In this document: positions 45,094 through 57,950 of the stretch, in pieces
Layout of the letters: each line of letters opens with the position of its first letter
Position numbering within the stretch: the first letter of the stretch is position 1
NCBI GenBank assembly: GCA_038747545.1
Contig: JBCDJT010000002.1
Location: 25,041-89,040, forward strand
Origin: Bacteroidota bacterium
GTDB lineage: Bacteria; Bacteroidota; Rhodothermia; Rhodothermales; JBCCMF01
Reading direction: 5' to 3'
Length of the DNA: 64,000 nt
Made by a program: the position numbers and the translations under genes
Notes under the pieces: generated by a model
Told to the model about the DNA's origin: nothing
What the model saw: the letters and a program-made list of their open reading frames with translations, nothing else
Databases searched by the model: none

Positions 45094-45138
45094 CAGCTCG
45101 TTTTATCGTATATCGCAAATATACGATAAAACGAGCTG
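45094..45138. promoter_or_regulatory. Perfect 20-5-20 AT-rich palindrome 3 nt upstream of the arsR start (candidate operator/promoter or 5' hairpin)
   Basis: cagctcgttttatcgtatat-cgcaa-atatacgataaaacgagctg, read directly. The arms are exact reverse complements. Confidence 0.5.
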
Positions 45139-45151
45139 GCAGACCAATTCT

Positions 45152-45309
45152 GAAATTTCATAGTGCAGCACACCGTCTAAATTTGTCATCCCGAGCGAAG
45201 CCGAGGGATCTCCCCCGATCTCGTTTTGCACAACTTCAAAGTGGGAGATCCCTCGGCTCCGGCCTGTGGCCTCTGCTCGGGATGACAACCTTGATCGCAC
45301 AATCATCTC
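45152..45309. repeat. Nested-hairpin repeat element, family B, long form
   Basis: gaaatttcatagtgcagcacaccgtctaaattt-[gtcatcccgagc...[gagggatctccc...gggagatccctc]...gctcgggatgac]-aaccttgatcgcacaatcatctc. The termini match the short copy at 18498-18581 (inverted). Confidence 0.8.
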
Positions 45310-45403
45310 CCCGAACTGGTATCACTGTGTACCCTCTGCACGAAAAAAGTGTACGAGAACACCAGCGCTGGCGATTTCGGGGGCAGCGCTGCGCCTTCTG
45401 CTG

Positions 45404-45548
45404 CCATCCTGAGCGGAGCCGAGCGGGCTAGGCACACCCCAGGTAGATCTCCCCTGATTACGGATGGCAACACCTCAAGGTGGGAGATCCTTCGGCTACA
45501 GCCCGGCGGGCCTTCGCTCAGGATGACACCTTTGATCGCATAAGCATC
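45404..45548. repeat. Nested-hairpin repeat element, family B, diverged tandem copy lacking the left terminus
   Basis: ccatcctgagcgg...agatctccc...gggagatccttcgg...cgctcaggatgac-acctttgatcgcataagcatc has the same nested architecture as 45184-45309 at lower identity. Confidence 0.65.
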
Positions 45549-45620
45549 TTCCGGGGCTGTTCTGCCATGCCGCAGGTCGTCCCTCTAGCGTCTCAGCCGA
45601 TCAGGTACGTCGTGGCGCGA

Positions 45621-46568
45621 TCAACGCTCCAGGAACGCCTTGACGGCTCCGGCGAACACCTGTGGCTTCTCGATTTGCAGCAGGTGGCCGCAGCGCGGAA
45701 TCTCGACGAGCGTGGCGTTGGGCATGGCTGCTTCGGCCCGCTCGAACACCTTCGCGGTAAAGCCGGGATGGAGGAACGGGTTGGGGATGAGCCCATCGTT
45801 TGCGCCGTAGATGATGAGCGTTTCCGCCGTCACCTCGCCCAGACGGTCCGTCGTGGGCTCGTCGAGCATGGCGCCCACCGATTGGATGACGGCGTAGGCG
45901 AACTCCTCAATCTCCTCCCCCTTCGCCATGCGCATGCGCTCCTCCACCATCCACTCGTACTCGTCGCGCCACGTGTAGAAGTTGCGGTTCAGGTTGGTGC
46001 GCACGACCTCTTCGCTGGAGCGCACGATGTCGTCGATCCGAAACACGTTGCGCAGCCACTTCGCTTCGCCCGGCTTGAAGGCTTCGACGCCCGCTGGCGA
46101 GGCCAGCACCAGCTTCTCCAGGCGGTCGGGGTGGTTCAGCGCAAACGTCAGCCCGATCTGCCCACCCATCGAGTGCCCGGTAACTACGGCGCGATCAATA
46201 GCGAGGGCATCCATCAGCGCCACCACCTGGTCGGCGTAGAACGCCATGCCGTACGGGAGATCGCCCTTGGCGGATTTGCCATAGCCGGGGAGGTCGAGGG
46301 CGATGACGCGGTAGTCCTCGGCGAGCAGCGGGATAGCATAGCGCCAGAAGCCCGCATTCGAAGCCAAGCCGTGGATCAAGATGATCGTCTGGTCGCCTGC
46401 GCCTTCGTCGATGTAGGCGAGGGGGAGGTCGCCATCGGTGCGCTGCGTGGCGAAGCCGTAGTCGATGTCCTGGAATTCGAGCGCAGGCATCGCGGCGTAC
46501 TTGTAGCCTGAACACGCGCCCAGCAGTAGGCTTAGCGCGCCGAGTAAAACAAGGTTCTTCATGTGCAT
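45621..46568 (-). CDS. Alpha/beta-hydrolase lipoprotein
   Basis: Lipobox LLLGACSG. HGLASNAGFW, nucleophile elbow GHSMGG, and C-terminal ...IPRCGHLLQIEKP (His). Confidence 0.85.
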   Translation of the reverse strand: MHMKNLVLLGALSLLLGACSGYKYAAMPALEFQDIDYGFATQRTDGDLPLAYIDEGAGDQTIILIHGLASNAGFWRYAIPLLAEDYRVIALDLPGYGKSAKGDLPYGMAFYADQVVALMDALAIDRAVVTGHSMGGQIGLTFALNHPDRLEKLVLASPAGVEAFKPGEAKWLRNVFRIDDIVRSSEEVVRTNLNRNFYTWRDEYEWMVEERMRMAKGEEIEEFAYAVIQSVGAMLDEPTTDRLGEVTAETLIIYGANDGLIPNPFLHPGFTAKVFERAEAAMPNATLVEIPRCGHLLQIEKPQVFAGAVKAFLER

Positions 46569-46572
46569 CTCG

Positions 46573-48126
46573 CTAGAACATCAGCCAGCTTAGGGTGACG
46601 AAGTGCGTCAACGGATTCATGGGGCGGCTGCCTTGGTTGGTGATGGTGGGCGCGTCGTAGAAGTCGCCCAGCCACGCGTAGGCCGCGCTGTACCCGACCG
46701 TCAGGAAGACGCCCAGGTTGTACTTGACCTCGGCGTTGATCTCGGTGCCGATGTACCGCCCGCCCTGCCGGGGCGCGACGTTGGAGAAGGCGGTGACCAG
46801 CCCGACCTTACCGTGCAGGCGGTTCGGAATCAGCGACTTGGAGGCCGTCAGGAAGCCCGCCGACACGCCCAGGCCGAGGTTGGAGATGTCGTGTACCATG
46901 CTGTAGAAGCGGTTGATCACCTGCGGGTCGGGGAACATGAGCAGCGCCCGGTGCGAGGTGAAGATGCCCGCCGGCGTGCCCCACACGTTGCCCGTCAGGA
47001 CCGAGTTGATGGTGCGGTCCGAGGCGCCGTTTTCGTCGCCCGTGGTGTACAGGCCTTCGAGCGAGACGAAGTCCTGATCGGTACCGCCCCACTTGTAGGA
47101 GGCGCGGGCGTTGGCAGCCACGCCCAACACATCGGCGAAGCTCACGCGCTCGTTATCGGCAGCCAGCGTATCGACCACGCCGAAGTTGGTGTTCACGAAC
47201 GCGTCAAGCCACAGGCGCGAGTTGACGAAGTCGCGGCCGTGCGAGTAGTTGAGGCCCGCCCAGAAGAGGTCGGCCTCGTACTTCTGCGAGGTGCCGGGCA
47301 GCCGGATGCGCGTGGCGCCGTTGTAATCGGCGAGCTGGCTGGTGAGTCCTTGCCCTAGCACCGACACGCCGCCCGCCTCCTTGCCCCGATCGGCCACGTA
47401 CCACGCGTTGACGCCCAGCGTGCTCTTGGCCGTGATGCGGGTCTCAAGATCGACCATGAACAGCGAGACGTCGTCGTCGAAGGCGATGAGGTTTTCCCAC
47501 AGCTGGTAGGCCCCGGCGCGGGCGTACGTGCCGTCGTTGAGCAGCCCGTACCACGTGATGCCCGTCCCCTGCGTGCCCCAGTAGGACAGCTTGCTGCCGC
47601 TGTTCTGGGCGAACTGCACCGTGTTGATGTTGGGATCGCGGGGGTTGTCGAAGATGCGCTGCAGACCGACCACGACGTTCCACGGCTGCTCGGTGGGCTT
47701 GAGGGAGATGTTGGCCAGCAGCGTCTGCATGTTCACCTGTCCGCCACCGATGCCGCCGCCTGCGTTGTTGCCTGCGCCATAGGCCCGGTCGCCGAAGGTG
47801 TAATCGATCTTGAACAGCGCACGGAAGGTCGCCAGCCCGTCCAGCACTGCCGGGCGGTACACCATGAACGGCACGAACCGCTGCTCGGTGTAGTAGGCCA
47901 GGTTGTCCGAGGTATTCGTCGAGTTGCCGCCAAACATCCGCCCGATCACCTGCCCCTGCAGGAAGTCGTTCGTGGGGCTGATGTTGCTCACGGTCGTCTT
48001 GGTGAACGAGTACCCGATGAACTGAAACTCCTTGCGCACCGGATCTTGCAGGTGCTCGATCCCGCCTTGCGCCAATACGGGGACCGCCATGCTCGTCAGG
48101 AGCGCGATCAGGGCTAGCTTCTTCAT
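46573..48126 (-). CDS. Hypothetical outer-membrane beta-barrel (porin/channel-like)
   Basis: Signal peptide MKKLALIALLTSMAVPVLAQ. 517 aa with alternating strands and a terminal ...VTLSWLMF. Start trimmed from 48204 to ATG 48126. Ends 4 nt from the downstream gene. Confidence 0.65.
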   Translation of the reverse strand: MKKLALIALLTSMAVPVLAQGGIEHLQDPVRKEFQFIGYSFTKTTVSNISPTNDFLQGQVIGRMFGGNSTNTSDNLAYYTEQRFVPFMVYRPAVLDGLATFRALFKIDYTFGDRAYGAGNNAGGGIGGGQVNMQTLLANISLKPTEQPWNVVVGLQRIFDNPRDPNINTVQFAQNSGSKLSYWGTQGTGITWYGLLNDGTYARAGAYQLWENLIAFDDDVSLFMVDLETRITAKSTLGVNAWYVADRGKEAGGVSVLGQGLTSQLADYNGATRIRLPGTSQKYEADLFWAGLNYSHGRDFVNSRLWLDAFVNTNFGVVDTLAADNERVSFADVLGVAANARASYKWGGTDQDFVSLEGLYTTGDENGASDRTINSVLTGNVWGTPAGIFTSHRALLMFPDPQVINRFYSMVHDISNLGLGVSAGFLTASKSLIPNRLHGKVGLVTAFSNVAPRQGGRYIGTEINAEVKYNLGVFLTVGYSAAYAWLGDFYDAPTITNQGSRPMNPLTHFVTLSWLMF

Positions 48127-48216
48127 GGCCAGAGCGTTTCGTGAACGGGACAATAGACACACCGAAGCGCCGCAGCAACGTGATACGCTGCGGCGCTTCG
48201 GCACGAGACAGGGTTG

Positions 48217-48948
48217 CTACTGTGCGGTTGCGCGGACGTACCGCTGCACGTTGAGCTGCATGAAGTTGCCCCCCGAGGTGCTGCCGAAGCCTGCGGCGGC
48301 CGTGGGCGGCGTGACGCCCGTGAGTGGCGGGTTCGTCTGCGCGACTTCGTAGGTCAGCACGCCATCCAGGTTCTGATAGATGCCTGCCGAGGTCAAAGTC
48401 GTCGGCGCCGATTGGCTGACCGTCACGTTACGGATGGTGCCTTCGCCTGCAGTGGCCTGCCACGTGCCCGTCAGCGTAACCTCTGAGTTGCTGGCATCCG
48501 TCGTGACAACGGTGTACGTACCGTCGGCGCGGAAGTCGGCGGTGATGCGGACGGTGTTGAACGGCGGGGCGGCCAGCAGCGGGGCGATGTTCGTCCCTTC
48601 GGAGACCCAGTTGCCCACGAGCGGGTCGTTCACGGTGAAGTCGATGGCGTCTGTGTCGTCGCCACGGCTGACCTGGATGGTGGTCGCGCCAATCGGGGCG
48701 CCATCGGGCACCGTCGTGACGATCTGGGTTTCGCTGACGGAGGTGACGGTGGCCGAGGTAGGCCCGAAGCGGACGCTGAGGCCCGCCGTGGCATCGCCAA
48801 AGTTCTCGCCCGTGATGGTGACGCTCACGCCGCCGTTGCCGTTGTCAGGCGTGACCGAGAGGATGGTGATGCCTTCGTCGCCGCCGCTGTCACAGCCGAC
48901 GAACACGAACGCCAGGAAGACGAGGGAGAGGAGAGAAGTGAGTCGCAT
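48217..48948 (-). CDS. Lipoprotein with IPT/TIG-like domain and C-terminal lipocalin-like region
   Basis: Lipobox FVFVGCDSGG. ITILSVTPDNGNGGVSVTITGENFG...IVTTVPDGAPIGATTIQV is IPT/TIG-like. A GNW...GTYTVV...LTGTW pattern is reminiscent of lipocalin-like domains (weak, by eye). Confidence 0.6.
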   Translation of the reverse strand: MRLTSLLSLVFLAFVFVGCDSGGDEGITILSVTPDNGNGGVSVTITGENFGDATAGLSVRFGPTSATVTSVSETQIVTTVPDGAPIGATTIQVSRGDDTDAIDFTVNDPLVGNWVSEGTNIAPLLAAPPFNTVRITADFRADGTYTVVTTDASNSEVTLTGTWQATAGEGTIRNVTVSQSAPTTLTSAGIYQNLDGVLTYEVAQTNPPLTGVTPPTAAAGFGSTSGGNFMQLNVQRYVRATAQ

Positions 48949-48969
48949 AGTAGGGACCTGGTTTGTGGT

Positions 48970-50478
48970 TTAGGAGCGGTTTTGGTGGATTAAGTCGCGT
49001 TTCTGGATCTTCCCCGAGGCGCTTTTGGGCAGCTCCGGGAGATGCGTGAAGTGTTTGGGCACCTTGAACTTGGCAAGGTTGGCTTGGCAGAAGCGCTTCA
49101 AGGCTTCGATGGCCAGCGGCGTGCCGTCGGTGGTGGCATAGAAGGCGTGGCCCACCTCGCCCCACCGCTCGTCGGCAACGCCCACCACGGCGGCCTCTTT
49201 GATGGCGGCGTGCGCGCGCAGCACGTGCTCCACCTCGGCGGGGTACACGTTCTCGGCGCCGCTGATGAACATGTCTTTCTTGCGGTCCACGATGTAGACG
49301 TAGCCCTCGGCGTCGCGGCGCACGAGATCGCCCGTGCGGAGCCAGCCGTCCTGGATGGTGGCGCGCGTGGCCTCGGGGTTGTTCCAATAGCCCGGCGTGC
49401 AGACCGGCCCCTTGAGCAGCAGTTCGCCCACCTCGTCCACGCCTACCTCGCGGTCCTGCTCATCGACGATCTTGATGTCGATGTAGAAGTTGGCGAAGCC
49501 CACCGAGCCGATCTTGCGCACCGCGTCCTCTTCGTTCAGCGAGAAGACGTTCGGGCCGAACTCCGTCAGCCCGTACCCTTGGCGGATGGGCACGCCCTTC
49601 GCGTTCCACTGCTCGATCAGCCCCAACGGCATCGGCTCGCCGCCGACGATGGCGTACCGGATCGACGCCAGCGAGCAGGAGGCAAACGAGGGCGCGTCGG
49701 CCATCATCTGCATCATGGTAGGCACGCCGAAGAGGATGGTAGCGCTTTCGGCATCGGACAGGCGAAGGATGGCGTCGGCGTCGAACTTCTTGAGCAGGAT
49801 CACCGTGCCGCCGCGATGCAGTACCGGCGTCGTCAGCACGTTCCAGCCGCCCGTGTGGAAGAACGGCGCGAAGGTCAGGATGACCTCGTCTTGGGTGAGG
49901 TTGAGCCGCAGCCCAGTGTTGACCGAGTTCCAGAAGAGCATCTGGTGCGTGATGAGCGCGCCCTTGGGGCGGCCCGTCGTCCCCGAGGTATAGAGGATCA
50001 TGCACGCGTCCTCGAACTGCGCTGCCACAGTCGTGGTGGGCGGCTCGGCTACTGCCTGTGCATCGGCCACGAAGGCGTCGAACGACGTGCGGGCGGGCAG
50101 GTGGTCGGCCAGCGCCTCGGCAGCATCTTGGTAGTCGGCGTCGTGGATGAGCAGCGCGGGCGTCGCATCCTGCAGCTGGAACGCCAGCTCGGGCACTGCC
50201 AGGCGGTAGTTGAGCGGCAGCAGGATCGCGCCCAGCCGCTGGAGCGCGAAGAACAGCGCTACGTACGCGATGCGGTTCTGCGCCAGCACCGCCACGCGGT
50301 CGCCGTGCTGCACGCCGTAGTCCCGCCGCAGCACCGCCGCCATCTGCTCCACGAGCCGGTACAACTCGCGGTAGGTCAGCTGCTCGCCCGTCTCGATGCT
50401 GCGCAGCGCCACCTTCTGCGGCGCGTAGACGGTCCAGCGCCCGATCCAATCCAGTTCTATGTGCGGTGTCGCGCTCAT
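48970..50478 (-). CDS. Adenylate-forming enzyme (acyl-CoA synthetase / AMP-dependent ligase family)
   Basis: 502 aa from ATG 50478. ILYTSGTTGRPKGALITH, GYGLTE, TGDLVRRDAEGYVYIVDRKKDMFISGAENVYPAEVE and a terminal SGKIQKRDL. The track ORF (to 51093) is over-extended through the upstream gene. Confidence 0.9.
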   Translation of the reverse strand: MSATPHIELDWIGRWTVYAPQKVALRSIETGEQLTYRELYRLVEQMAAVLRRDYGVQHGDRVAVLAQNRIAYVALFFALQRLGAILLPLNYRLAVPELAFQLQDATPALLIHDADYQDAAEALADHLPARTSFDAFVADAQAVAEPPTTTVAAQFEDACMILYTSGTTGRPKGALITHQMLFWNSVNTGLRLNLTQDEVILTFAPFFHTGGWNVLTTPVLHRGGTVILLKKFDADAILRLSDAESATILFGVPTMMQMMADAPSFASCSLASIRYAIVGGEPMPLGLIEQWNAKGVPIRQGYGLTEFGPNVFSLNEEDAVRKIGSVGFANFYIDIKIVDEQDREVGVDEVGELLLKGPVCTPGYWNNPEATRATIQDGWLRTGDLVRRDAEGYVYIVDRKKDMFISGAENVYPAEVEHVLRAHAAIKEAAVVGVADERWGEVGHAFYATTDGTPLAIEALKRFCQANLAKFKVPKHFTHLPELPKSASGKIQKRDLIHQNRS

Positions 50479-51512
50479 GGGCTCCAGAAGGGTAAAACGT
50501 GGGCTAAGAACTCGTCGGGGCGCTCGATGTAGGGCGAGTGGCCCGTGCCTTCCATCACGACTTCGCTGTAGGCGCCGCCCTTGGCGCGCCGCTGCTCCAG
50601 CACGTAGCGCGTCTGCGCGACCATCGGCTGCGGCGGGTAGAGCGCTTCGCCGGGGTAGTTTGGGATGAGGCCCAGCGTTCCGAGTGTGCCAAAGTCGAAG
50701 AGGGACGCATCGCTGACGATCTGGTCCTGGTCGCCGCGCACCCACAGCACCGGCACGCTGGCCGTGGCCTCGATGAAGCGCGCCACGGTGTCGCTCAGGT
50801 GCTTCGGCGAGACGGCGTTGAGCGGCCCCCATACGCCGGGCCGCACGAACGGGTAGTGCTCGGACGCCTCGAAATCGCCTGGGTAAAACTGCTCGCCAAT
50901 CTGCATCGCCAGCAGGCCGTCCAGCAGTTCGTCCTCGGCGGGTGTTGTGAACGACGGGTGCCAGTAGTAGGTGTTCATCACGGCGCGCGGGCTGGCGTTC
51001 GGGTCGTCCAGGCTGCGGTCGTCGGCCTTCAGGCGCTCCACGAAGACCGGATTGGCGATGCCGCCGCCCGAGCCTGCGAAGTCGGGCCAGCACGGTTCGC
51101 CTTGCTCGCCCTTGGAGCCACCAAAGCCATATGGCGAGCCGGGGTTGACCAGCGTGGCGCTTGCGAAGCGCTCGGGGTGGCTTCCCAGGAGCGCGTACAG
51201 GATGTTGCCGCCCAGCGAGTGCCCCACCACATGCACCTGCGCGTGGCCCAGGTGGTCGAGTAGCGCGATGAGGTCATCCACCACATCGCCGAAGCCGCGC
51301 GTAGCGTCGATGGGCCGCGCCTCGGTGGCGCCGTAGCCGCGCGTGTCGGGCGCGAGGGCGGTGAAGCGCTCGGGGAGCCGCGCCATCAGGTCCTTCCAGA
51401 AGACGGACGACGATCCGTTTCCGTGGACGAGCAGGACGACGGTCTCGCCGCCGGGCCTCACCAACGCGTGCTGCGCCAGCCGCGCCGTGGGATAGGTGAC
51501 AGCGTGGATCAT
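50475..51512 (-). CDS. Cytoplasmic alpha/beta hydrolase with large lid insertion
   Basis: 345 aa from ATG 51512. VVLLVHGNGSSSVFW, GHSLGG, a lid of about 110 aa, VRGDQDQIV and GTGHSPYIE. ATGA overlaps at both ends (51509-51512 and 50475-50478). Confidence 0.85.
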   Translation of the reverse strand: MIHAVTYPTARLAQHALVRPGGETVVLLVHGNGSSSVFWKDLMARLPERFTALAPDTRGYGATEARPIDATRGFGDVVDDLIALLDHLGHAQVHVVGHSLGGNILYALLGSHPERFASATLVNPGSPYGFGGSKGEQGEPCWPDFAGSGGGIANPVFVERLKADDRSLDDPNASPRAVMNTYYWHPSFTTPAEDELLDGLLAMQIGEQFYPGDFEASEHYPFVRPGVWGPLNAVSPKHLSDTVARFIEATASVPVLWVRGDQDQIVSDASLFDFGTLGTLGLIPNYPGEALYPPQPMVAQTRYVLEQRRAKGGAYSEVVMEGTGHSPYIERPDEFLAHVLPFWSP

Positions 51513-53053
51513 GCGGCGGATACCTCTGGGGTGTTGGAGGTGGAGTGCGCCGCGCCATCGGTAGCGAACAGCGAACTGCCCAGAACGATCAGCACCGAGG
51601 AGGCGATGGCGACGGCGGCGGCCACGCCGGGGTTCTCGCCCGTGGCCGCGGTAAACGGCACCGCGAGCTGGCCGTAGTACATCGAGAAGTGGATGACCAC
51701 GGCGGCCACGGAGGCGACCATGATGCCGCGCCGGTTCGCCTTCCAGCCAAACAGCCCAAACAGGATGGGCACGAAGGCCGCCGAGAAGTACGCGTAGACG
51801 CCGTTCTGCGCGAAGATGCCGACGCTCAGCTTGGGGTTGACCAGCTGATCCCACGAGATGAACACGCAGGCTACGCCCAGCGCCACAATCACCCACTTGT
51901 TGACCTGCACGCCGCGCTGCTCAAAACCGTCCAGCTTGCCCATCCGGCCCGCCAGCGGCTTCAGGATGTCCTGCGTGATGGAGACCGAGATGGACTGGAT
52001 CAGCCCCTCCATCGTGGAGAGGCCCGCCGAGATGAGCCCCATCACCACGATCAGCCCGATGAAGACGGGAAACTCGCTCACCACATACGCCGACACCAGC
52101 CCGTCGAGCGGGATCGCAGCGCCGTTCGCCGAGAGGTCGGGGAAGGCGAGGCGGATGTACAGGCCGGCGATCACCACGAGGAAGAACAGCATCTGCACAC
52201 TGGCGCCCACGAGCAGGTAGCGGTTCACATCACGGTCGCTCTTGAGCAGCAGCGACTTCGTCAGGATGTGCGGCTGGCAGATGATGGCGATGCCGACGAT
52301 GAATTGGCAGACGAAGATCTCGAAGTAGTCGCGGAAGAGGAAGCTGTCGTTGTTAGTTGTGGCGATGAGCTTGGGGTCGATGGCGCTCAGCTTGTCTAGG
52401 AAGCCGCGCACGCCGTTGCTGAAGTGCTCGTAGCCCGAGGTCAGGAGCACCACGGCCACGATCAGCATGAGCACCGCTTGGATCGTGTTGGTGTAGACCA
52501 TCGAGTTGGCCCCGCCGAACATCATGTAGCCAAACACGAAGACGACGATGCCCAGCAGCGCTGCCCACTCGGGGATGTTCAGCGTGCTCGACAGCACCTT
52601 GGTGAGCCCCACGCAGATGAGCACCAGGAACGTGATGAGTAGCAGCGAGAGCACGGCGAAAAAGACGCCGAAGCCCTTGCTCTGGTAGCGCGTCTCCATC
52701 CACTGCGCCATCGTCAGCGCCTTCACCGAGTGGCCGTGCTTGCGGAAACCCTTGGTGAGCACCACCAGCGAGATCAACGCGGCCACCGGCAGCGCAATCG
52801 CCATCGACAGGATGCCGCTGATGCCGTAGACGGCGACGAAGCCGGGGTTGATGATGAACGTAGCCGCACTCGTGATGGACGCCGCCAGCGACAACCCGAC
52901 CGCCGTGGGCGAGAAGAGGATGCTGCCTACGGCGTAGTCGTCGACGGAGCGGATCTCGCGCGCGCCGCGAATCACAAAGAAGAGGATGGCCCCCGCGTAC
53001 GCGAGCACCAGGACCCATCCGGCAATGACCATACTTTGCGATGCAAGGCTCAT
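51509..53053 (-). CDS. Sodium:solute symporter (SSS/SLC5) family transporter
   Basis: 514 aa, about 13 TM segments. The N-terminus ...FFVIRGAREIRSVDDYAVGS... is typical of SSS members. Confidence 0.9.
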   Translation of the reverse strand: MSLASQSMVIAGWVLVLAYAGAILFFVIRGAREIRSVDDYAVGSILFSPTAVGLSLAASITSAATFIINPGFVAVYGISGILSMAIALPVAALISLVVLTKGFRKHGHSVKALTMAQWMETRYQSKGFGVFFAVLSLLLITFLVLICVGLTKVLSSTLNIPEWAALLGIVVFVFGYMMFGGANSMVYTNTIQAVLMLIVAVVLLTSGYEHFSNGVRGFLDKLSAIDPKLIATTNNDSFLFRDYFEIFVCQFIVGIAIICQPHILTKSLLLKSDRDVNRYLLVGASVQMLFFLVVIAGLYIRLAFPDLSANGAAIPLDGLVSAYVVSEFPVFIGLIVVMGLISAGLSTMEGLIQSISVSITQDILKPLAGRMGKLDGFEQRGVQVNKWVIVALGVACVFISWDQLVNPKLSVGIFAQNGVYAYFSAAFVPILFGLFGWKANRRGIMVASVAAVVIHFSMYYGQLAVPFTAATGENPGVAAAVAIASSVLIVLGSSLFATDGAAHSTSNTPEVSAA

Positions 53054-53062
53054 AGCGCGTTC

Positions 53063-54052
53063 CTACCACCTGAAGGCGTTGCAGGCGAACGTGAGACCGC
53101 CGCCCGAGCCCATCAGCACGAAGATGTCGCCCGGCTGGAGCTCGCCACGCCGCACCGTGATGTCCATCGCCATACCGATAGCCGCCGAGCCCGTGTAGCC
53201 ATAGGTGCTCATGATCGTAGGCGCCACCGCGCGGTCGAGCCCCAGGTTGTCCATCGTCTCATGGATCTGGTTAATGTTGATCTGGGTCATGAACGCCTTC
53301 TTGATGTCGGACACGGCAAAGCCGCCGCGCTCGGCCACCGTCTGGATCATCTCCGTCCACATCAGCGGATTCAGCTCCTTGGGGAATTTCTTGGCGAAGA
53401 CCAGCTTGTGCTGCTGCTGCTGCACGCTCTCCGCGGTAGTGGGCAGCGCCGAGCCGCCGTGGTAGATGCCCATGTAGTCGTTGTACTCCCCCTTCGTCCG
53501 GCTGTCCGAGGCGAGGTGGTAGGGCTGGTCGGCGTCGATGGCTTTGACGACGCCTGCGGCGGCGCCATCGGCGAAGAGGGTCACGGTCTTCTTGTCGTCC
53601 AGGTTGAGAAAGCGGCTCATCCCATAGGCGCCGATGACAAGCGCATGGGTGTAGCGCTCGTCGGCCTTGAGGAAGTTGGCCGCCGTCTCTGCTGCCATGA
53701 CAAACCCGGCGCAGGCGGTGTTCAGGTCGAAGCTCGTCGCCTGCGTCAGCCCCATGCGGTCGCAGACGACGGCAGCGGTGGAGGGCGAGATGAACTCGGG
53801 CGTGTCGGTGGAGATGATGACGAGGTCGATGTCTTCCGGGCCGACCTGCGCCATGCTGAGCGCGTTGTCTGCCGCCGCCACGCAGAAGTCGCTCAGGCGC
53901 TCGCCGTCCTGCATCCAGCGCCGCTCGCGGATGGTCAGGTTCTCTCGCAGCCACGTGTCCACGTCCTGCCCCAGCCGCTCGTTGAACCAGCTGTTGGGCA
54001 CCACGTGGTCGGGAACGGCCATGCCGGTGCCGATGAAGCGGACCGTCCTCAT
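53063..54052 (-). CDS. KAS-III (FabH)-like thiolase-fold protein retaining the active-site Cys but apparently lacking the catalytic His and Asn
   Basis: 329 aa from ATG 54052 (ATGA overlap with the SDR stop). FDLNTACAGF (Cys). MTQIN sits where FabH has PHQAN, and YGYTGSAA where FabH has HGNTSAAS. C-terminal GSGGGLTF. Confidence 0.85.
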   Translation of the reverse strand: MRTVRFIGTGMAVPDHVVPNSWFNERLGQDVDTWLRENLTIRERRWMQDGERLSDFCVAAADNALSMAQVGPEDIDLVIISTDTPEFISPSTAAVVCDRMGLTQATSFDLNTACAGFVMAAETAANFLKADERYTHALVIGAYGMSRFLNLDDKKTVTLFADGAAAGVVKAIDADQPYHLASDSRTKGEYNDYMGIYHGGSALPTTAESVQQQQHKLVFAKKFPKELNPLMWTEMIQTVAERGGFAVSDIKKAFMTQININQIHETMDNLGLDRAVAPTIMSTYGYTGSAAIGMAMDITVRRGELQPGDIFVLMGSGGGLTFACNAFRW

Positions 54053-54792
54053 ATGATCACGCCTCCGTCTACGCTGAGCGTGGTGCCCGTGATGAAACTG
54101 GCGTGCTCCGAGGCGAGAAACACGTAGGCGTTGGCAATGTCCTCGGGCCGACCCATGCGCTGGAGCGGCGTCTTCGACACCATGCCGTCGATCACGGTCT
54201 CCGGCATCTTCTGCACCATCTCGGTGGCGATGAAGCCCGGTGCCACGGCGTTCACGCGCACGCCCTTGCGGCCCAGCTCGCGGGCCCACGTCTTCGTCAT
54301 CCCAATCACGCCCGCCTTGGTAGCCACGTAGTTGGTCTGCCCGAAATTCCCGTAGAGCCCCACCACCGAACTGGCGTTGAGGATCACGCCCGACCGGGCC
54401 TCAACCATGAACGGCGCCACGGCCTTGGTGCAGTTGAAGACGCCCGTCAGGTTAACGTCGATGACCTGCTGCCACGTTTCGGCGTCCATCTTCATCAGCG
54501 TGCGGTCCTTGGTGATGCCCGCGTTGTTGATGAGCACATCCACGCGCCCTGTCCGTGCAACGGCATCCTCCACGGCGGCCTGCACCTCGTCTAACTGCGT
54601 GACGTTTACCTTGCTGAAGGCCGCGGCGTGCCCATGTTCTGCCAGTTCAGCGACAAGCGCTTGGCCCAACGCCTCGTTGACATCCCAGCACTCGATGCGC
54701 GCGCCCAGGCCGGCAAATGCCTGAACGGTGGCCCGCCCTATGCCTGCAGCGCCTCCGGTAACGATGACCGTCTGGTCTTTGAACGAAAACAT
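54049..54792 (-). CDS. Classical short-chain dehydrogenase/reductase, FabG-like (3-oxoacyl reductase type)
   Basis: VIVTGGAAGIGRA, NNAGI, S...YVATK and GVRVNAVAPGFIATEM. ATG 54792 is preferred over the track start at 54819, which lies in an AT-rich palindrome. Confidence 0.9.
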   Translation of the reverse strand: MFSFKDQTVIVTGGAAGIGRATVQAFAGLGARIECWDVNEALGQALVAELAEHGHAAAFSKVNVTQLDEVQAAVEDAVARTGRVDVLINNAGITKDRTLMKMDAETWQQVIDVNLTGVFNCTKAVAPFMVEARSGVILNASSVVGLYGNFGQTNYVATKAGVIGMTKTWARELGRKGVRVNAVAPGFIATEMVQKMPETVIDGMVSKTPLQRMGRPEDIANAYVFLASEHASFITGTTLSVDGGVII

Positions 54793-54804
54793 ATATTTGT
54801 AGTG

Positions 54805-54820
54805 TTTGAAAATTTTCAAA
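54805..54820. promoter_or_regulatory. Perfect 16-bp palindrome TTTGAAAATTTTCAAA between the regulator gene and the SDR gene (candidate operator)
   Basis: Read directly. It overlaps TACATTTG on the coding (minus) strand, which fits the Bacteroidota -7 consensus TAnnTTTG, and lies 12 nt upstream of ATG 54792. Confidence 0.45.
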
Positions 54821-54860
54821 TGTAGGGTGTGACGCGTGCCCCATGCTTCCTGTACCCGGC

Positions 54861-55349
54861 CTACCCTGGCACAGCCTGCTTCTCCTGGTCCCAGGCTTGC
54901 AGGAACTGCCGATGGAAGGTCTCCATCAGCGTGTAAAACGCCTCCATCTCTTGCATGCGCTGGTTGAAGTAGGCGACCTCTGGGTCTGCTGCGGCCAGCG
55001 CCTCAGAGTGCTGAGCAAAGCGCTCGCCGAGCTTCCGGTTTTTCCGCATGGAGGAGGTGTAGTTGCGGAATGCCTGGCCGAAGATGTCCTCGGTGGCCCG
55101 GTAGTAGTCCTTGCGTTCGCCGGGTATCCAGACCTTCTCGATGAGGTTGTGGTCTTTCAGGCGGCGAGCGATCTGCGAAATCGGCCCCTTGCTCATCTGG
55201 AGTTCTTCCGAAATCTGGTCGAGCGAAAGCGCTTCCGGCGTGATGAGTAGTAGAGCGACGATCTTCCCCATCAACGAGCTGTATCCCAAGTTCTGGTAGG
55301 CTTGGGAGTACGCGTCGATGAGCTGCAGTTTGAGGTCGTCTTTAGTCAA
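54861..55349 (-). CDS. GbsR/MarR-type winged-helix transcriptional regulator
   Basis: LIDAYSQAYQNLGYSSLMGKIVALLLITPEALSLDQISEELQMSKGPISQIARRLKDHNLIEKVWIPGERKDYYRA is the GbsR-family pattern. The start is uncertain: the track ORF runs to 55469 through AT-rich, intergenic-looking DNA, so I prefer TTG 55349 (low certainty). Confidence 0.7.
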   Translation of the reverse strand: MTKDDLKLQLIDAYSQAYQNLGYSSLMGKIVALLLITPEALSLDQISEELQMSKGPISQIARRLKDHNLIEKVWIPGERKDYYRATEDIFGQAFRNYTSSMRKNRKLGERFAQHSEALAAADPEVAYFNQRMQEMEAFYTLMETFHRQFLQAWDQEKQAVPG

Positions 55350-55364
55350 GATTCTCGTTTTGCG

Positions 55365-55380
55365 TTTGATTTGTATCAAA
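55365..55380. promoter_or_regulatory. 16-bp palindrome TTTGATACAAATCAAA upstream of the regulator gene (candidate autoregulatory operator)
   Basis: The half-sites TTTGA/TCAAA and the spacing are the same as in the palindrome at 54805-54820. Confidence 0.4.
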
Positions 55381-55499
55381 TACTGAAAAAGTAGAGCGGA
55401 TAGCAAGTACTTTTTTCGATTAGTGCGCTGAATATCGCGGGAGCGTGGCCGAGCGGGGTAGTATCCCAACGGTGGGAGCCGTCCCCGAGGAGGACAACG

Positions 55500-57950
55500 C
55501 TACTCAGCGTTGAGGAGACGTACCGCGGTTGCATACGCCTCGGGCATGGCATCGGCCGCGGTCTCCACATCGGTGAAGGCGTGCAGCAAGCGGCGCGCTT
55601 CGGGCCGTCCCCCCTGTTGGCTGTGCAGCGCCAGGCCTAAGCTGTACAAGAGGTTGAGGCGGTGCGGCGCCTCAGCGGCATACACCACAGAGTCGATGCG
55701 CAGCGCCTCGCGGTAGTGATAAATTGACTCGGTGTGGCGCTCCTGAAGATGATAGAGGTAACCTAGCCAGCCGTGTGTGTTCGACAGGTTGGAGTGCGGT
55801 TCTCCGAAGACCGTGCGAGAGATGTCGATGCCCACGTGAAGCAGAGATTCAGCCTCAGCGACCTCACCATTCTGGATCAAGAGGCCTGCCAGCTGATCGA
55901 TGGAATCGGTGACGTCAGGGTGGTTGCGGCCAAGAAATGCGATAGTGGTGGCTAGCGCTTGGCGGGACAGCGTCTCGGCTTCGTCCATCTCGCCTCGAAG
56001 CTCAAGCAGGCTGACCAAGTTGTGCTGCGTGTACGACACAAGCAGATGATCGGCGCCCAACAGGTCGATCCGCAGGGCCAGCGAAGCCCGGAGCAGTGCT
56101 TCCGCTTCCTGTACATCGCCGAGGTCTTGCACCGCCAGCGCGAGGTTGTTCTGCACCTTAGCTAGACTCACGGACGGCGGCTCATCACGGTGCAGTTGGT
56201 GCGCTTGCCGCAAGTAGTACGCGGCGGAGTCGGGCATGGTGCGCATCCAATACGTAGTACCCACTCGGTCGAGGGTCTCGGCAAGAACGGTTGGTACTGT
56301 CGTATGCTGGCGCTGGATGGCTAGAGCGCGCAGCGCCAACGTCGTCGCCTCGCGTGGGCGGTCTTGGTCTTCGCGCAGTGCGCTGAGGCGCAAGTAGCTC
56401 TCCGCCACCTCGGGCGCATCGGGGCCGTGTGCGTCCTGCCGTAACGCTAGGGCCTCCAGGAGCAGCGAGTCGGCCTGCTCAAAGAGCGCCAAGTCGGCGT
56501 ATACGTCGCCGATGCGGGTTTGCAGCGTAGCACGCATGGCAGGCTCTGTGTTGAGTTCAGAAGCCAGGCGCTCCGTGCCGAACTGGAGCAGTTCCAGGGC
56601 TGTCGTCTCGGGCGTCACTAGCCCGGCCTCGCTGTACGGACTGGCGCCACGGAAGAGGGTGCCCAGGAAGTCGGCTACCGATTCTGATTCGCGCCGTGCC
56701 TCCTCGGCTGCGACCTGGGCGGCTTCGGCGGTATGCCGCAATGTTCGTTCGCGGAGGCCTACGACTACCAGAGCCGCCACCACGACGAGCACACTCGCAA
56801 CGGCCCACCTATGGCGCTGGATGAACTTGCGCGCCAGGTACCCAGCGGTCGGCACGCGCGCAGTGACGGGCGCTCCGGCCAAGTGCTGGCGGAGGTCGGC
56901 GGCGAAGGCTTCGACGGAGGTGTACCTGTCCGCGGGGGCCTTGCGCAGTGCCTTGAGGGCGATGGCGTCTAAGTCACCGTGCAGCCGCCGCGCCCGCCGT
57001 GCCGACTCGCGGCTGGGCGAGAGCGTCTGCACGCGCATTGAGGGCCGCACGGGGTCACGCTCGCAAATCAGCGTCTCAACTTGCCGTGGCGAGCACCCCT
57101 CCAGCGCGTAGGCGCGCACATCGGTGAGCAGCTCATAAAGGATGAGGCCGAGCGCATAGACATCGGTGGCGGTGCTGTGGGGCTGCCCTAAGAGCTGTTC
57201 AGGGGCGGCATAGGCGGGCGTGAGCACCTGCTGCCCGGTGCGCGTGAGTTGTAGATGTCGGTCGTCGTGCGTGTCGTCCGGCTCAACGAGCTTGGCAATG
57301 CCGAAGTCGAGCAGCTTCGGCTGCCCCTCAGCATCCACCAAGATGTTACTCGGTTTGAGGTCGCGGTGGATGATAAGGTGCTGGTGGGCGTACTGCACGG
57401 CATCGCACACATGCAGAAAGAGGCGGAGGCGCTCATCCAAGGCGCAACGGTGGTGCTGCACATAGGCTGTCACCGGCTGGCCGTCTACATACTCCATGAC
57501 GAAGTACGGCAACTGGGCGTCCGTCGCGCCTGCATCCATCAGCCGAGCGATGTGGGGGTGCTGGAGCTTGGCCAGGAAGCGTTGCTCTTGCACAAAACGC
57601 TGCCGCAACACGTCCGAGGGAAAGGGATAGCGCAGCAACTTGAGGGCTACGTGTGTATCGAGGTCGCCGCGGTGGGCTAGAAATACCGCGCCCATCCCTC
57701 CGCGGCCAATCGCCTTCACCAAGCGGTAGGGGCCAAGCTGTTCAAGGTGGGGTGGGATCTGGGGCACCTGCCAGGCAGGCATAGCGTCCAGGTACGCGGG
57801 CGCATCGGCATCGGCAGCTAAGAGGCTCAACACCTCGCGGGCCAGCGCCTGGTCATCGCCTGCGGCGGCCTCCACGAAGGCGCGCGGGTCGGCGTGGGCC
57901 AGCGCTTCCTCAAAGAGCTGCTGAACGTGAGGCCAGTGTGCAGAGTCCAT
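55500..57950 (-). CDS. Ser/Thr protein kinase with one TM segment and C-terminal TPR repeats
   Basis: 816 aa from ATG 57950. Kinase motifs GRGGMGAVFLA, VALK, HRDLKPSNILV, DFGIAK and APE; TM WAVASVLVVVAALVVVGL; then repeated TPR-like helices. The track ORF is over-extended by 122 codons. Confidence 0.85.
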   Translation of the reverse strand: MDSAHWPHVQQLFEEALAHADPRAFVEAAAGDDQALAREVLSLLAADADAPAYLDAMPAWQVPQIPPHLEQLGPYRLVKAIGRGGMGAVFLAHRGDLDTHVALKLLRYPFPSDVLRQRFVQEQRFLAKLQHPHIARLMDAGATDAQLPYFVMEYVDGQPVTAYVQHHRCALDERLRLFLHVCDAVQYAHQHLIIHRDLKPSNILVDAEGQPKLLDFGIAKLVEPDDTHDDRHLQLTRTGQQVLTPAYAAPEQLLGQPHSTATDVYALGLILYELLTDVRAYALEGCSPRQVETLICERDPVRPSMRVQTLSPSRESARRARRLHGDLDAIALKALRKAPADRYTSVEAFAADLRQHLAGAPVTARVPTAGYLARKFIQRHRWAVASVLVVVAALVVVGLRERTLRHTAEAAQVAAEEARRESESVADFLGTLFRGASPYSEAGLVTPETTALELLQFGTERLASELNTEPAMRATLQTRIGDVYADLALFEQADSLLLEALALRQDAHGPDAPEVAESYLRLSALREDQDRPREATTLALRALAIQRQHTTVPTVLAETLDRVGTTYWMRTMPDSAAYYLRQAHQLHRDEPPSVSLAKVQNNLALAVQDLGDVQEAEALLRASLALRIDLLGADHLLVSYTQHNLVSLLELRGEMDEAETLSRQALATTIAFLGRNHPDVTDSIDQLAGLLIQNGEVAEAESLLHVGIDISRTVFGEPHSNLSNTHGWLGYLYHLQERHTESIYHYREALRIDSVVYAAEAPHRLNLLYSLGLALHSQQGGRPEARRLLHAFTDVETAADAMPEAYATAVRLLNAE

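Follow-up and report, generated by a model that had tools for sequence, protein, structure and literature searches.

Described systems with which the present locus may be compared include the Ole/beta-lactone pathways, fatty-acid synthesis, and the textbook 3-hydroxybutyrate pathway, the last of which does not require a KAS-like enzyme. Literature searches by component or candidate substrate, the coverage of which was incomplete, yielded no description of the function of the locus, and, in line with the preliminary description, in which no characterised pathway was recognised, we found no characterised equivalent. The locus is situated in a window of 64,000 nucleotides, which is the whole stretch of DNA that was analysed, and forms a tightly packed operon of nine genes, all on the minus strand (Table 1). 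It had been introduced as a ten-gene locus, but the accompanying list also contained nine. The common strand, the ATGA overlaps at 54049-54052, 51509-51512, and 50475-50478, the gaps of 9 nt (53054-53062), 21 nt (48949-48969), and 4 nt (46569-46572), and the 90-nt gap at 48127-48216 were all reproduced exactly from the ORF coordinates. Since these overlaps and very short gaps are accompanied by an operator motif that is restricted to the neighbourhood of the regulator gene, the locus appears to be a single regulated unit.

Pfam and NCBIfam profile searches, which were used for domain assignment, bore out the classes originally given to the regulator, SDR, KAS III-like protein, SSS symporter, ligase, both hydrolases, and TIG lipoprotein. 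We consider the locus to be best explained, with a probability of approximately 70%, as a repressor-controlled operon for the uptake and catabolism of an ester-linked hydroxy-carboxylate nutrient. The original suggestion that an ester or carboxylate is captured, hydrolysed, imported, activated with CoA, and further processed is supported by co-conservation, the channel or receptor, the symporter, the SDR, and thiolase/MaoC genes, and the evidence also fits 3-hydroxyacid catabolism, which had been listed as one option.

Table 1. Features of the locus, with positions in the window.
Feature	Position	Strand	Remarks
Putative operator palindrome TTTGATTTGTATCAAA	55365..55380		Directly upstream of regulator start
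Winged-helix regulator (REG), GbsR/CudC-like, MarR superfamily	54861..55349	-	162 aa; TTG start 55349
Putative operator, perfect palindrome TTTGAAAATTTTCAAA	54805..54820		Between regulator and SDR genes
Classical SDR	54049..54792	-	ATG start 54792; FabG-like by score, NAD-type
KAS III (FabH)-fold protein	53063..54052	-	ATGA overlap with SDR gene
Sodium:solute symporter (SSS)	51509..53053	-	Pfam SSF, 120.5 bits
Cytoplasmic alpha/beta hydrolase	50475..51512	-	Abhydrolase_1/6; ATGA overlaps on both sides
Adenylate-forming acyl-CoA ligase	48970..50478	-	AMP-binding, 291 bits; AMP-binding_C
Predicted surface lipoprotein	48217..48948	-	Lipobox, acidic residues after Cys, TIG spacer, C-terminal beta domain
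20-bp stem-loop	48158..48205	-	Within 90-nt lipoprotein-barrel gap; found by terminator-like scan
Predicted outer-membrane 18-stranded beta-barrel channel	46573..48126	-	Signal peptide, C-terminal Phe; AlgE/OprD-like
Exported alpha/beta-hydrolase lipoprotein	45621..46568	-	Abhydrolase_1, 117 bits; GHSMGG
Palindromic repeat pair, ~110 nt each	45179..45533		Downstream of last gene; marks locus end

When the KAS-like protein was used as the query, at least 590 species genomes gave a match (Bacteroidota, Ignavibacteriota, Calditrichota, Marinimicrobia, and allies), and gene neighbourhoods were counted in 80 loci located through such matches. These loci contained genes for the KAS-like protein (80), SDR (71), ligase (68), SSS symporter (62), exported hydrolase (61), barrel (41), a regulator orthologue (40), the lipoprotein (39), a TonB-dependent receptor family (21, mostly in loci without the barrel), and the cytoplasmic hydrolase (13), the last of which is an accessory gene. 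Because the partner genes keep their order across most of the 80 loci and in several phyla, the gene set represents more than chance; the conservation of the neighbourhood, raised as a question in the preliminary description, is thus strong and extends across phyla. The nearest relatives belong to Balneolales and not to Rhodothermales, as judged from the identity of the KAS-like protein (76% versus 63%, respectively). Approximately ten loci are flanked by LytS/LytTR sensor pairs.

The SDR (Pfam adh_short; adh_short_C2, 232 bits) narrowly passes the cut-off for FabG equivalogs in NCBIfam (303.8 versus 296), and the locus may, on this score, be linked to fatty-acid synthesis. Strand beta-2 of the SDR ends in a Trp-Asp pair, the Asp of which is kept in 68 of approximately 73 homologues. 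The nearest solved structures are the SDR/FabG-named entries 4NBW, 4NBU, and 4NBV, which we take to be NADH-dependent FabG homologues, and the next, 2et6, a "(3R)-hydroxyacyl-CoA dehydrogenase" (246 bits), ranks above canonical FabG entries. We propose that the enzyme is an NAD-type (3R)-hydroxyacyl-CoA dehydrogenase. This Asp and the solved relatives of the SDR, together with the genes that join the locus in other lineages, namely one for acetyl-CoA acetyltransferase (thiolase; directly upstream, 13 loci) and one for a MaoC R-hydratase (five loci), point to catabolic, R-specific chemistry, which is the direction that we infer for the operon.

The KAS-like protein (Pfam ACP_syn_III and ACP_syn_III_C) scored below the FabH cut-offs in NCBIfam (221.8 versus 249). 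As had been observed from the sequence, it lacks the His and Asn of this family; an alignment to solved FabH retained Cys114 and placed Gln257 and Tyr286 at the positions of His and Asn, respectively, and this triad is invariant in 120 homologues and also in A1. Sequence comparisons identified the protein as a FabH derivative (E 4.5e-39), whereas its match to OleA was partial (E ~1e-15). The reported likeness to an Ole/beta-lactone enzyme set holds for the enzyme classes and does not extend beyond them. The Ole/beta-lactone pathway was rejected on the basis of this FabH-derived, not OleA-like, protein and an NAD-type SDR with (3R)-hydroxyacyl-CoA dehydrogenase relatives.

The lipoprotein (Pfam TIG, 46 bits; AlphaFold model, pLDDT 92) possesses a conserved eight-stranded beta C-terminal domain (approximately residues 108-240), which is the only domain retained in homologues of approximately 165 aa, and its top Foldseek matches were Bacteroides "auxiliary nutrient binding" surface proteins, aligned through the TIG domain. 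Asp/Glu residues after the lipobox Cys averaged 2.7 in its homologues (n=6) and 0.05 in those of the exported hydrolase, in which SGYKYA, a stretch free of acidic residues, comes after the lipobox LLGAC; the hydrolase is predicted to face the periplasm. Its gene most often directly adjoins that of the barrel or TonB-dependent receptor, and almost every locus with a barrel gene has the lipoprotein gene ahead of it (39 lipoprotein and 41 barrel loci). Searches of Pfam, NCBIfam, and the PDB with the barrel sequence returned no match. The structure model (pLDDT 70) showed 18 strands, and Foldseek retrieved AlgE (E 8e-17) followed by MOMP and OccD/OccK/OprD, which bears out the class assigned earlier and indicates a porin-type, AlgE/OprD-like channel; PF13372 was carried by five barrel homologues among the 120 matches listed. 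An uptake logic is suggested by this barrel, the acidic signal of the lipoprotein, the flanking LytS/LytTR pairs, and an MFS protein of the anion:cation-symporter type that replaces the SSS symporter in four loci.

The match of the symporter to its nearest equivalog, PanF, fell well short of the cut-off (103.8 bits versus 328), and we propose that the protein imports the released carboxylate across the inner membrane. The cytoplasmic hydrolase has a Ser nucleophile in GHSLGG and no signal peptide, its homologues lack a lipobox in 13 of 13 cases, and its top NCBIfam match was intracellular short-chain PHA depolymerase (82 bits, cut-off 300, N-terminal half only). For the exported hydrolase, the nearest NCBIfam families were PcaD, meta-cleavage hydrolases, and PHA depolymerase, all under cut-off, and the best PDB match was 4f0j (111 bits). 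The ligase most closely resembled 8wev/8weu, a feruloyl-CoA/fatty-acyl-CoA synthetase (379 bits), then FadD13 (303 bits), with generic MenE/FadD-type NCBIfam matches under cut-off. Since the hydrolase, ligase, and symporter matches all fall under curated equivalog cut-offs, they do not fix the substrate.

In the proposed uptake and catabolic operon, the substrate would be bound by the surface-exposed lipoprotein, cross the outer membrane via the 18-stranded channel (or a TonB-dependent receptor in other lineages), and have its ester bonds cut by the periplasm-facing serine hydrolase, after which the released acid would be imported by the Na+/solute symporter (or the anion-type MFS in some lineages) and converted to a CoA thioester by the ligase. 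The SDR would then oxidise (3R)-hydroxyacyl-CoA to 3-ketoacyl-CoA in an R-specific beta-oxidation, and cleavage of the keto compound to acetyl-CoA units may fall to the Cys-Gln-Tyr protein, to a thiolase with a gene inside or outside the locus, or to the two together. The locus has no conserved acyl-CoA dehydrogenase, which fits a substrate already hydroxylated at C3. Among substrate classes, oligomers of (R)-3-hydroxyalkanoates derived from polyhydroxyalkanoate debris are the most likely, an identification that is itself doubtful; the statement combining it with the general scheme falls somewhat short of even odds. Both hydrolases match the solved PHB depolymerase 8ynv, and this and the top NCBIfam match of the cytoplasmic hydrolase provide mild hints towards PHA, but the similarities to PHA depolymerases do not extend beyond the N-terminal half, the generic part of the hydrolase fold. 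The feruloyl-CoA synthetase relationship of the ligase also counts against the proposed explanation, as do the lack of an extracellular PHB depolymerase among recurrent neighbours and the KAS-like gene, which is the most conserved and coexists with a true thiolase in 13 loci.

The regulator reached 56 bits (E 3e-15) against the NCBIfam CudC model, far short of the 218 set as its equivalog cut-off, and its Pfam MarR_2 and PadR matches were both sub-threshold. Start codons were refined from homologue lengths (median of 163 aa for regulator orthologues), and the TTG start leaves the upstream operator-like palindrome non-coding. This palindrome, one of only two TTTGA-N4-8-TCAAA matches in the window, overlaps a promoter-like site (sigma-70-like hexamer pair at 55379-55351) and may serve as an autoregulatory operator; 17 of 39 related loci carry the motif ahead of their regulator gene. 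The second palindrome is a putative operator of the eight-gene operon; 23 of the 33 spacers between regulator and SDR genes contain the motif, across phyla, and none of the 23 loci without the regulator has it upstream of the SDR gene, with a background of 96 matches in 1.41 Mb. The regulator would bind these TTTGAAA-N2-TTTCAAA palindromes and dissociate in response to the substrate or the corresponding CoA ester. The conserved putative operator flanking the regulator gene is a feature beyond those previously described.

Another such addition is the stem-loop that separates the lipoprotein gene from the barrel gene, a recurrent intercistronic structure: the gap has a folding energy of -39.4 kcal/mol (z -3.2), and in 31 of 38 related loci the corresponding gap gave a z no higher than -3. 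The hairpin repeats noted at the end of the locus correspond to two copies of a palindromic element of approximately 110 nt (~45179-45290 and ~45400-45533; inverted-repeat pairs I2, I3, I4, and I6), which have the common ends GTCATCC(T/C)GAGCGAAG. The motif TCATCCTGAGCGAAGG occurs in these repeats at 45511 (-) and 45186 (+), with 0.05 matches expected by chance.

The nine-gene locus is a conserved and regulated unit, and it represents a nutrient-utilization operon of a kind already known from the hca locus and the PULs, several parts of which are new: the Cys-Gln-Tyr KAS III-fold enzyme, the predicted pair of an AlgE-like channel and a surface lipoprotein, a conserved putative operator and an intercistronic stem-loop. 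We consider it probable, at roughly 70%, that its products act in the capture, de-esterification, import and CoA-dependent breakdown of an ester-linked hydroxy-carboxylate. A characterized equivalent was found neither in family libraries and solved structures nor in the searchable literature, whether by component or by candidate substrate.

The window derives from a Bacteroidota metagenome-assembled genome, and an identical KAS protein is present on a 91-kb NCBI contig. Regarding the layout of the locus, the preliminary description counted ten genes, although its own list held nine, and nine consecutive minus-strand genes are what the region contains. The junctions that it gave (ATGA overlaps at three places, spacings of 9, 21 and 4 nt at three others and a single wider gap of 90 nt) were exact, and the hairpin repeats that it placed at the end of the locus are two copies of a roughly 110-nt palindromic element downstream of the last gene. 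Apart from the barrel, which matched no family, its gene assignments agreed with those obtained from Pfam and NCBIfam, namely, a winged-helix regulator, a classical SDR, a KAS III-fold protein, an SSS symporter, a cytoplasmic alpha/beta hydrolase, an adenylate-forming ligase, a TIG-domain lipoprotein and a lipoprotein alpha/beta hydrolase, hereafter the exported hydrolase. It had also allowed for the genes not being conserved together. Homologous loci were therefore of interest as a check on this point: an alignment pattern of the KAS-like protein was scanned against one genome per species, which gave at least 590 confirmed matches, and 80 loci were kept, the components of which were counted by tblastn and all-against-all clustering of the locus ORFs. 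The same set recurs in these 80 loci, and a functional unit is thus favored. They span Balneolales, which include the closest relatives (KAS identity of 73-76%), Rhodothermaceae, Flavobacteriales, Cytophagales, Saprospiraceae, Chitinophagales and Bacteroidales, as well as Ignavibacteriota, Calditrichota, Marinimicrobia, Krumholzibacteriia, Zhuqueibacterota and Chlorobi-like lineages; cultured carriers include Cyclonatronum proteinivorum, Marinoscillum furvescens and Fodinibius species.

Features of the locus and its surroundings, with positions in the window and the number of related loci that contain each component
Feature	Position (strand)	Loci (of 80)	Remark
938-aa ORF	55500-58316 (-)		directly upstream of the locus
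Operator-like palindrome	55365-55380		just upstream of the regulator gene
Regulator gene	(-)	40	TTG start at 55349, from homologue lengths
Operator-like palindrome TTTGAAAATTTTCAAA	54805-54820		between the regulator and SDR genes
SDR gene	54049-54792 (-)	71	ATG start at 54792, from homologue lengths
KAS-like gene	53063-54052 (-)	80
SSS symporter gene	(-)	62
Cytoplasmic hydrolase gene	(-)	13	accessory gene
Ligase gene	(-)	68
Lipoprotein gene	48217-48948 (-)	39	precedes the barrel gene in nearly all barrel-bearing loci
Stem-loop, 20 bp	48158-48205		in the 90-nt lipoprotein-barrel gap, 48127-48216
Barrel gene	46573-48126 (-)	41
Exported hydrolase gene	45621-46568 (-)	61
Palindromic repeat copies	45179-45290, 45400-45533		common ends GTCATCC(T/C)GAGCGAAG
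186-aa ORF	44871-45431 (+)		probably no real gene
1094-aa protein gene	39947-43231 (+)		T9SS C-terminal sorting domain

The commonest order across the loci is regulator, SDR, KAS, SSS, ligase, lipoprotein, barrel and hydrolase, and the variations on it concern mainly the ends of the proposed route. A TonB-dependent receptor family occurs in 21 of the 80 loci, mostly those without the barrel and lipoprotein, and the exported hydrolase usually lies beside this receptor. An MFS carrier of the anion:cation-symporter type takes the place of the SSS protein in 4 loci, thiolase II (acetyl-CoA acetyltransferase) is encoded directly upstream in 13, a MaoC R-hydratase gene follows the ligase gene in 5 loci of the Balneolales type, and LytS/LytTR pairs lie alongside in about 10. 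In 15 loci of the Bacteroidia type (L083:5903-7336 and 14 others, e.g., L016, L026, L052, L057 and L076), a cytoplasmic protein of 477 aa, unmatched in both Pfam and NCBIfam, is encoded in place of the GbsR-like regulator and may be an unrecognized regulator itself. A reduced variant in Phaeodactylibacter (loci L060, L061, L069 and L080) comprises the KAS-like and ligase genes together with those for a TonB-dependent receptor and a protein similar to the N-terminal AAA_26 part of phosphate acetyltransferase, with no SDR, symporter or hydrolase gene in the vicinity. The KAS-like protein and the ligase look like the minimal core. Two typical Bacteroidota-type loci carry a Firmicute or an alphaproteobacterial label (L017, 'Bacillota bacterium' MAG; L067, 'Thalassovita sp.' MAG), and their contigs of 9.7 and 16.6 kb are probably mis-binned. 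MutS, BrkB, cytidylate kinase-like proteins and PLP enzymes also recurred as neighbors and were set aside as unrelated housekeeping genes.

The regulator is CudC/GbsR-like with a score of 56.4 bits against a CudC cut-off of 218, which denotes family-level similarity of the wHTH region only. The palindrome TTTGA-N4-8-TCAAA has exactly two matches in the 64-kb window, and they flank the regulator gene. Across phyla, 23 of 33 intergenic regions between the regulator and SDR genes contain it, as do the upstream regions of 17 of 39 regulator genes, in comparison with none of 23 SDR upstream regions in loci that lack the regulator and a background of 96 matches in 1.41 Mb. Its presence in regulator-bearing loci and absence from those without a regulator suggest that this putative element is very probably the operator of the regulator. 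The choline-type family match of the regulator is also the point of departure for a highly improbable explanation of the locus, the catabolism of acyl-carnitine, carnitine-like or other quaternary-amine esters, in which an esterase would free a 3-hydroxy acid that is then activated with CoA, oxidized at C3 and cleaved to betainyl-CoA and acetyl-CoA. Carnitine is an (R)-3-hydroxy acid that would suit the ligase, the NAD-type SDR and a cleavage step, and the cytoplasmic hydrolase could serve as a thioesterase; however, the CudC/GbsR-type match, the only family-level one that the regulator has, lies far below its cut-off, unrelated regulators take the place of this protein in half of the loci, small zwitterions need neither a specific channel with a surface lipoprotein nor a TonB-dependent receptor, the alternative carrier is of the organic-anion MFS type, and betaine transporters of the BCCT or ABC type are not among the recurrent genes of the loci.

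Regarding the KAS-like protein, its best solved matches are true FabH enzymes, which align over the full length (E 4.5e-39), while OleA, PqsD and PqsC score far below them, and it is judged from these alignments to be a FabH derivative. It nevertheless misses the FabH cut-offs (NF006829, 221.8 vs. 249; TIGR00747, 193 vs. 292.1) and lacks the Cys-His-Asn triad of FabH: in the alignment to solved FabH, the triad reads Cys114-Gln257-Tyr286, with Cys kept, the catalytic His (His244 in FabH numbering) replaced by Gln and Asn (Asn274) by Tyr in every member. In 120 homologues, the most distant of which are 54% identical, neither this triad nor the TQININ and GYTGSA motifs around it vary, and the triad was not seen in any top-ranked solved relative among the printed alignments. 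The thiolase/KAS III fold, the Cys in an NTACAG motif, the Gly-rich oxyanion loop and a Trp aligned with Trp32 of E. coli FabH, presumably the CoA-stacking residue, are retained and are shared with FabH, OleA, PqsD and PqsC, in contrast to the Gln and Tyr that stand for His and Asn. A Gln occupies the position aligned with Arg249 of E. coli FabH, which we take to be the ACP-docking residue. The active site is therefore not a decayed one: it was replaced, and the replacement has been conserved. The options for its role are a degradative thiolase of the KAS III fold, a CoA-dependent thiolytic cleaver of oligo-ester-CoA and an acyl-CoA transacylase.

The SDR (247 aa) is a classical adh_short/FabG-like protein, with an Epimerase family match of only 23.6 bits, and narrowly reaches two FabG equivalog cut-offs (NF004198, 303.8 vs. 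296; TIGR01830, 302.5 vs. 297.75). An acidic residue at the end of strand beta-2 is a signature of NAD(H) preference in the SDR classification, and a Trp-Asp pair ends this strand here, the Asp37 of which is kept in 68 of about 73 homologues; the predicted cofactor site accordingly carries Asp37 instead of the NADPH-type site of FabG. The best solved relatives are 4nbw, 4nbu and 4nbv, followed by 2et6 ('(3R)-hydroxyacyl-CoA dehydrogenase') at 246 bits, and all four outscore canonical FabG and acetoacetyl-CoA reductases; the first three, of the 4NBT-4NBW series, are presumably NADH-dependent FabG homologues.

These two proteins bear on the possibility that the locus salvages acids for the synthesis of lipids. 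A short or branched acid would be imported, activated with CoA, loaded or condensed by the KAS-like protein and reduced by the FabG-like SDR to give a primer or a 3-hydroxyacyl unit for fatty-acid or lipid A synthesis. The two FabG cut-offs passed by the SDR, the FabH descent of the KAS-like protein (best PDB matches, E 1e-39) and its retained acyl-accepting Cys, oxyanion Gly loop and Trp32-aligned Trp speak for such a pathway, and later steps of an elongation cycle would be supplied by MaoC and, in the 3 loci that have one, by an NMO enzyme of the FabK-like kind. We nonetheless regard salvage as quite unlikely: the His and Asn of decarboxylation are replaced in every KAS-like member, Gln stands at the Arg249-aligned position, the SDR has an NAD-type Asp, no ACP gene lies within the locus, a degradative-type thiolase adjoins in 13 loci, and an outer-membrane uptake system with a periplasmic hydrolase would be excessive for small primer acids. 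The gene for this NMO-family (FabK-like) flavoprotein is confined to three related loci (L075, L076 and L083, Bacteroidales/Lentimicrobium), where it is located upstream of the thiolase-SDR-KAS genes and has the opposite orientation.

The ligase is predicted to be of the ordinary CoA-ligase type within the ANL adenylate-forming family, with AMP-binding (291 bits) and AMP-binding_C (65 bits) domains and the C-terminal catalytic Lys motif SGKIQKR; its NCBIfam matches are MenE/FadD-type models. Its nearest solved relative is 8wev, an actinobacterial feruloyl-/fatty-acyl-CoA synthetase (379 bits, about 44% identity as read by eye from the alignment), the next entry scoring 303 bits. The symporter reaches the SSS family (SSF, 120.5 vs. 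a Pfam cut-off of 22.8) and is no PanF equivalog (103.8 against a cut-off of 328). Biosynthesis and export of a lipid-like product in the manner of OleABCD, lipstatin or nocardiolactone, with which the locus has four broad classes of enzyme in common (a thiolase-fold protein, a reductase, an adenylate-forming enzyme and an alpha/beta hydrolase), is largely refuted by these assignments and is the least probable of the explanations considered. Solved OleA chains match the KAS-like protein only partially (residues 26-141) and weakly, at about 1e-15 vs. 1e-39 for FabH, the His and Asn retained by OleA-type thiolases, which catalyze a non-decarboxylative head-to-head condensation, are Gln and Tyr here, the SDR is of the classical NAD type and not of the OleD 3-beta-HSD (extended SDR) type, the ligase resembles a CoA ligase, the cytoplasmic hydrolase is missing from 67 of the 80 loci, and the conserved hydrolase is an exported lipoprotein, unlike OleB. 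The conserved partners are moreover uptake components, that is, the symporter, the porin-like channel or TonB-dependent receptor, and the exported hydrolase. Membership in the Ole/beta-lactone group was rejected on these subfamily grounds, with the features of OleA, OleD and OleB all lacking, and the distinction from such pathways drawn in the preliminary description holds.

The similarity of the ligase to 8wev also raises the utilization of hydroxycinnamate esters of the feruloyl, coumaroyl or chlorogenate type, for which the hca cluster of Acinetobacter baylyi, with HcaR and HcaG as what we take to be a MarR-type regulator and an esterase, would be the analogue. The substrate would enter through the channel, an esterase would free the phenolic acid, and import and CoA activation would be followed by shortening of the side chain along a CoA-dependent, beta-oxidative path, with a hydratase, the SDR as dehydrogenase and cleavage by the KAS-like protein or a thiolase. 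Like the hca cluster, the locus unites in a single regulated cluster a dedicated channel of the outer membrane, a hydrolase for esters, a carboxylate carrier of the inner membrane, a CoA ligase and catabolic enzymes that depend on CoA. The hca roles of the porin HcaE and the MFS protein HcaK are described (10.1101/2021.09.07.459243), and the porin, inner-membrane transporter and catabolic genes have the same arrangement in both. The lead of feruloyl-CoA synthetase over the next solved ligase relative is wide, and channels of the OprD/OccK type include aromatic-acid channels such as OpdK with vanillate. On the other hand, the 8wev sequence has also been deposited as a fatty-acyl-CoA synthase, an Ech-type hydratase/lyase and an aldehyde dehydrogenase are present neither in the window locus nor as recurrent neighbors in the 80 loci, the MaoC hydratase that the route needs occurs in only 5 loci, and the locus is found in pelagic, hypersaline and anaerobic lineages with no obvious route for an aromatic product. 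The locus further differs from hca in that an SDR of the NAD type and a KAS III-fold protein with the Cys-Gln-Tyr triad make up its cytoplasmic enzymes, its channel is AlgE-like, paired with a surface lipoprotein and exchangeable for a TonB-dependent receptor, its carrier is SSS as opposed to MFS, and it occurs in Bacteroidota-related phyla and not in Proteobacteria. This hca-like explanation appears unlikely.

The barrel protein (517 aa, with a signal peptide and a C-terminal Phe) had no Pfam match at E <=0.01 and no NCBIfam match; PF13372 (Alginate_exp) is precomputed for 5 of 120 listed homologues. Its model, with 18 strands and a mean pLDDT of 70, retrieved the alginate channel AlgE in Foldseek (E 8e-17, TM 0.54-0.67), followed by MOMP and the carboxylate channels of the OprD/Occ type (OccD/OccK at E 1e-10), which indicates a predicted 18-stranded channel fold of the AlgE/OprD type; a FadL-type or lipid channel was ruled out by this fold. 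The protein is 55-60% identical between phyla, unusually conserved for an outer-membrane protein. The least confident loops of the model (e.g., residues 53-68, 116-128, 258-271 and 378-394) are among the most conserved stretches, a hint that conserved loops within the channel, or forming a plug, are left unresolved by the model. The lipoprotein model (pLDDT 92) consists of a TIG domain and an eight-stranded C-terminal beta domain, the latter being the conserved part, and its architecture matches the surface nutrient-binding lipoproteins of Bacteroides, which were the top Foldseek matches. An acidic stretch after the lipobox Cys is the surface-export signal of Bacteroidota; homologues of the lipoprotein carry strongly acidic residues there, e.g., KKDDDE, in contrast to the exported hydrolase, which has none, and from this difference the lipoprotein is predicted to be exposed at the cell surface and the hydrolase to face the periplasm. 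The two hydrolases of the locus are 30% identical to each other, and no other paralogues of the locus genes were found elsewhere in the 64-kb window.

The gap between the lipoprotein and barrel genes folds unusually stably, with z <=-3, in 31 of 38 related loci of unrelated sequence, with mononucleotide shuffling as the only control. This suggests a conserved intra-operon RNA structure, which perhaps sets the lipoprotein-to-channel ratio, and the stem-loop may serve for attenuation within the operon, for processing or for stability. An Rfam scan of 44500-56000 found no known RNA or riboswitch at the locus, the sole hit being a chance miRNA match (E 0.88).

The envelope part of the locus is similar to PULs of the SusC/SusD type in its surface lipoprotein, which combines an Ig-like spacer with a binding domain at the C-terminus, in the succession of outer-membrane import, periplasmic hydrolysis and inner-membrane symport under a local regulator, and in the TonB-dependent receptor of some variants. 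It differs from them in lacking SusD, glycoside hydrolases and sugar kinases, in having a TonB-independent 18-stranded channel as the common outer-membrane component, and in a downstream chemistry of acyl-CoA metabolism. No SusD-like cluster recurs in the 80 loci, and the TonB-dependent receptor variants stand alone.

In the catabolic scheme that we favor, the substrate would be bound at the cell surface, pass the outer membrane and be cut in the periplasm by the serine hydrolase; the organic anion would be imported with Na+ and ligated to CoA, the resulting (3R)-hydroxyacyl-CoA would be oxidized in an NAD-dependent step, and a C-C cleavage would follow. The cytoplasmic steps resemble the R-specific beta-oxidation of the peroxisomal MFE-2 type in the closeness of the SDR to 2et6, its NAD-type Asp and the MaoC hydratase (the fold of hydratase 2) that accompanies it in 5 loci, whereas the proteins are separate here, not fused into one multifunctional enzyme, and are coupled to an uptake system and a KAS III-fold protein instead of an SCPx-type thiolase. 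The monomer is suggested to be already hydroxylated at C3 and the substrate to be an oligomeric ester because the locus has no conserved acyl-CoA dehydrogenase, the SDR and MaoC form an R-specific, MFE-2-like pair, a thiolase is often adjacent, and the outer membrane has a polymer-type channel or a TonB-dependent receptor. Polyhydroxyalkanoate (PHA) oligomers fit best among such substrates because they are ubiquitous, linear, carboxyl-terminated and R-configured, in agreement with weak similarities of the hydrolases to PHA depolymerases, and we tentatively propose PHA as a possible substrate.

A more far-reaching and rather doubtful reading is that of a 'polyester (oligo-hydroxyalkanoate) utilization locus' across Bacteroidota-related phyla with a new catalytic type of the KAS III fold at its core. 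The ligase would prime the free carboxyl end of the imported oligo-ester with CoA, and the Cys-Gln-Tyr enzyme would attack the ester bonds thiolytically through its Cys while Tyr and Gln protonate the alcohol that leaves, so that several 3-hydroxyacyl-CoA units would be released for one ATP; alternatively, this enzyme may be a degradative thiolase of the KAS III fold. The AlgE-like channel and the surface lipoprotein would then form a new TonB-independent uptake pair for linear anionic oligomers.

If the proposed function is true, one of the more widely conserved operons of Bacteroidota, Ignavibacteriota, Calditrichota and related phyla would be a dedicated route for non-sugar ester-linked carbon, which would extend the idea of the utilization locus beyond glycans and suggest that polyester or other necromass rich in esters has a sink in sediments, soda lakes and oceans. 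The locus would also offer an enzyme that derives from FabH and has an invariant Cys-Gln-Tyr site, a new uptake pair for the outer membrane and, after identification of the ligand, a regulator-operator pair directly usable as a biosensor.

Regarding the genomic surroundings, the window also encodes TonB-dependent receptors, a MacB-type permease, a PQQ dehydrogenase, a T9SS-tailed protein and a methyltransferase, and no functional link of these neighbors to the locus was found. The 186-aa ORF, which has no Pfam match, overlaps the palindromic repeats. The 938-aa ORF, on the same strand as the locus, combines a transmembrane segment and a Ser/Thr kinase motif (HRDLKPSNIL) with a long C-terminal part rich in repeats, and is not conserved beside the locus elsewhere. 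The 1094-aa protein, with DUF5122 beta-propeller repeats and DUF11 and Laminin_G_3 domains in addition to its sorting domain, is secreted and unrelated to the locus.
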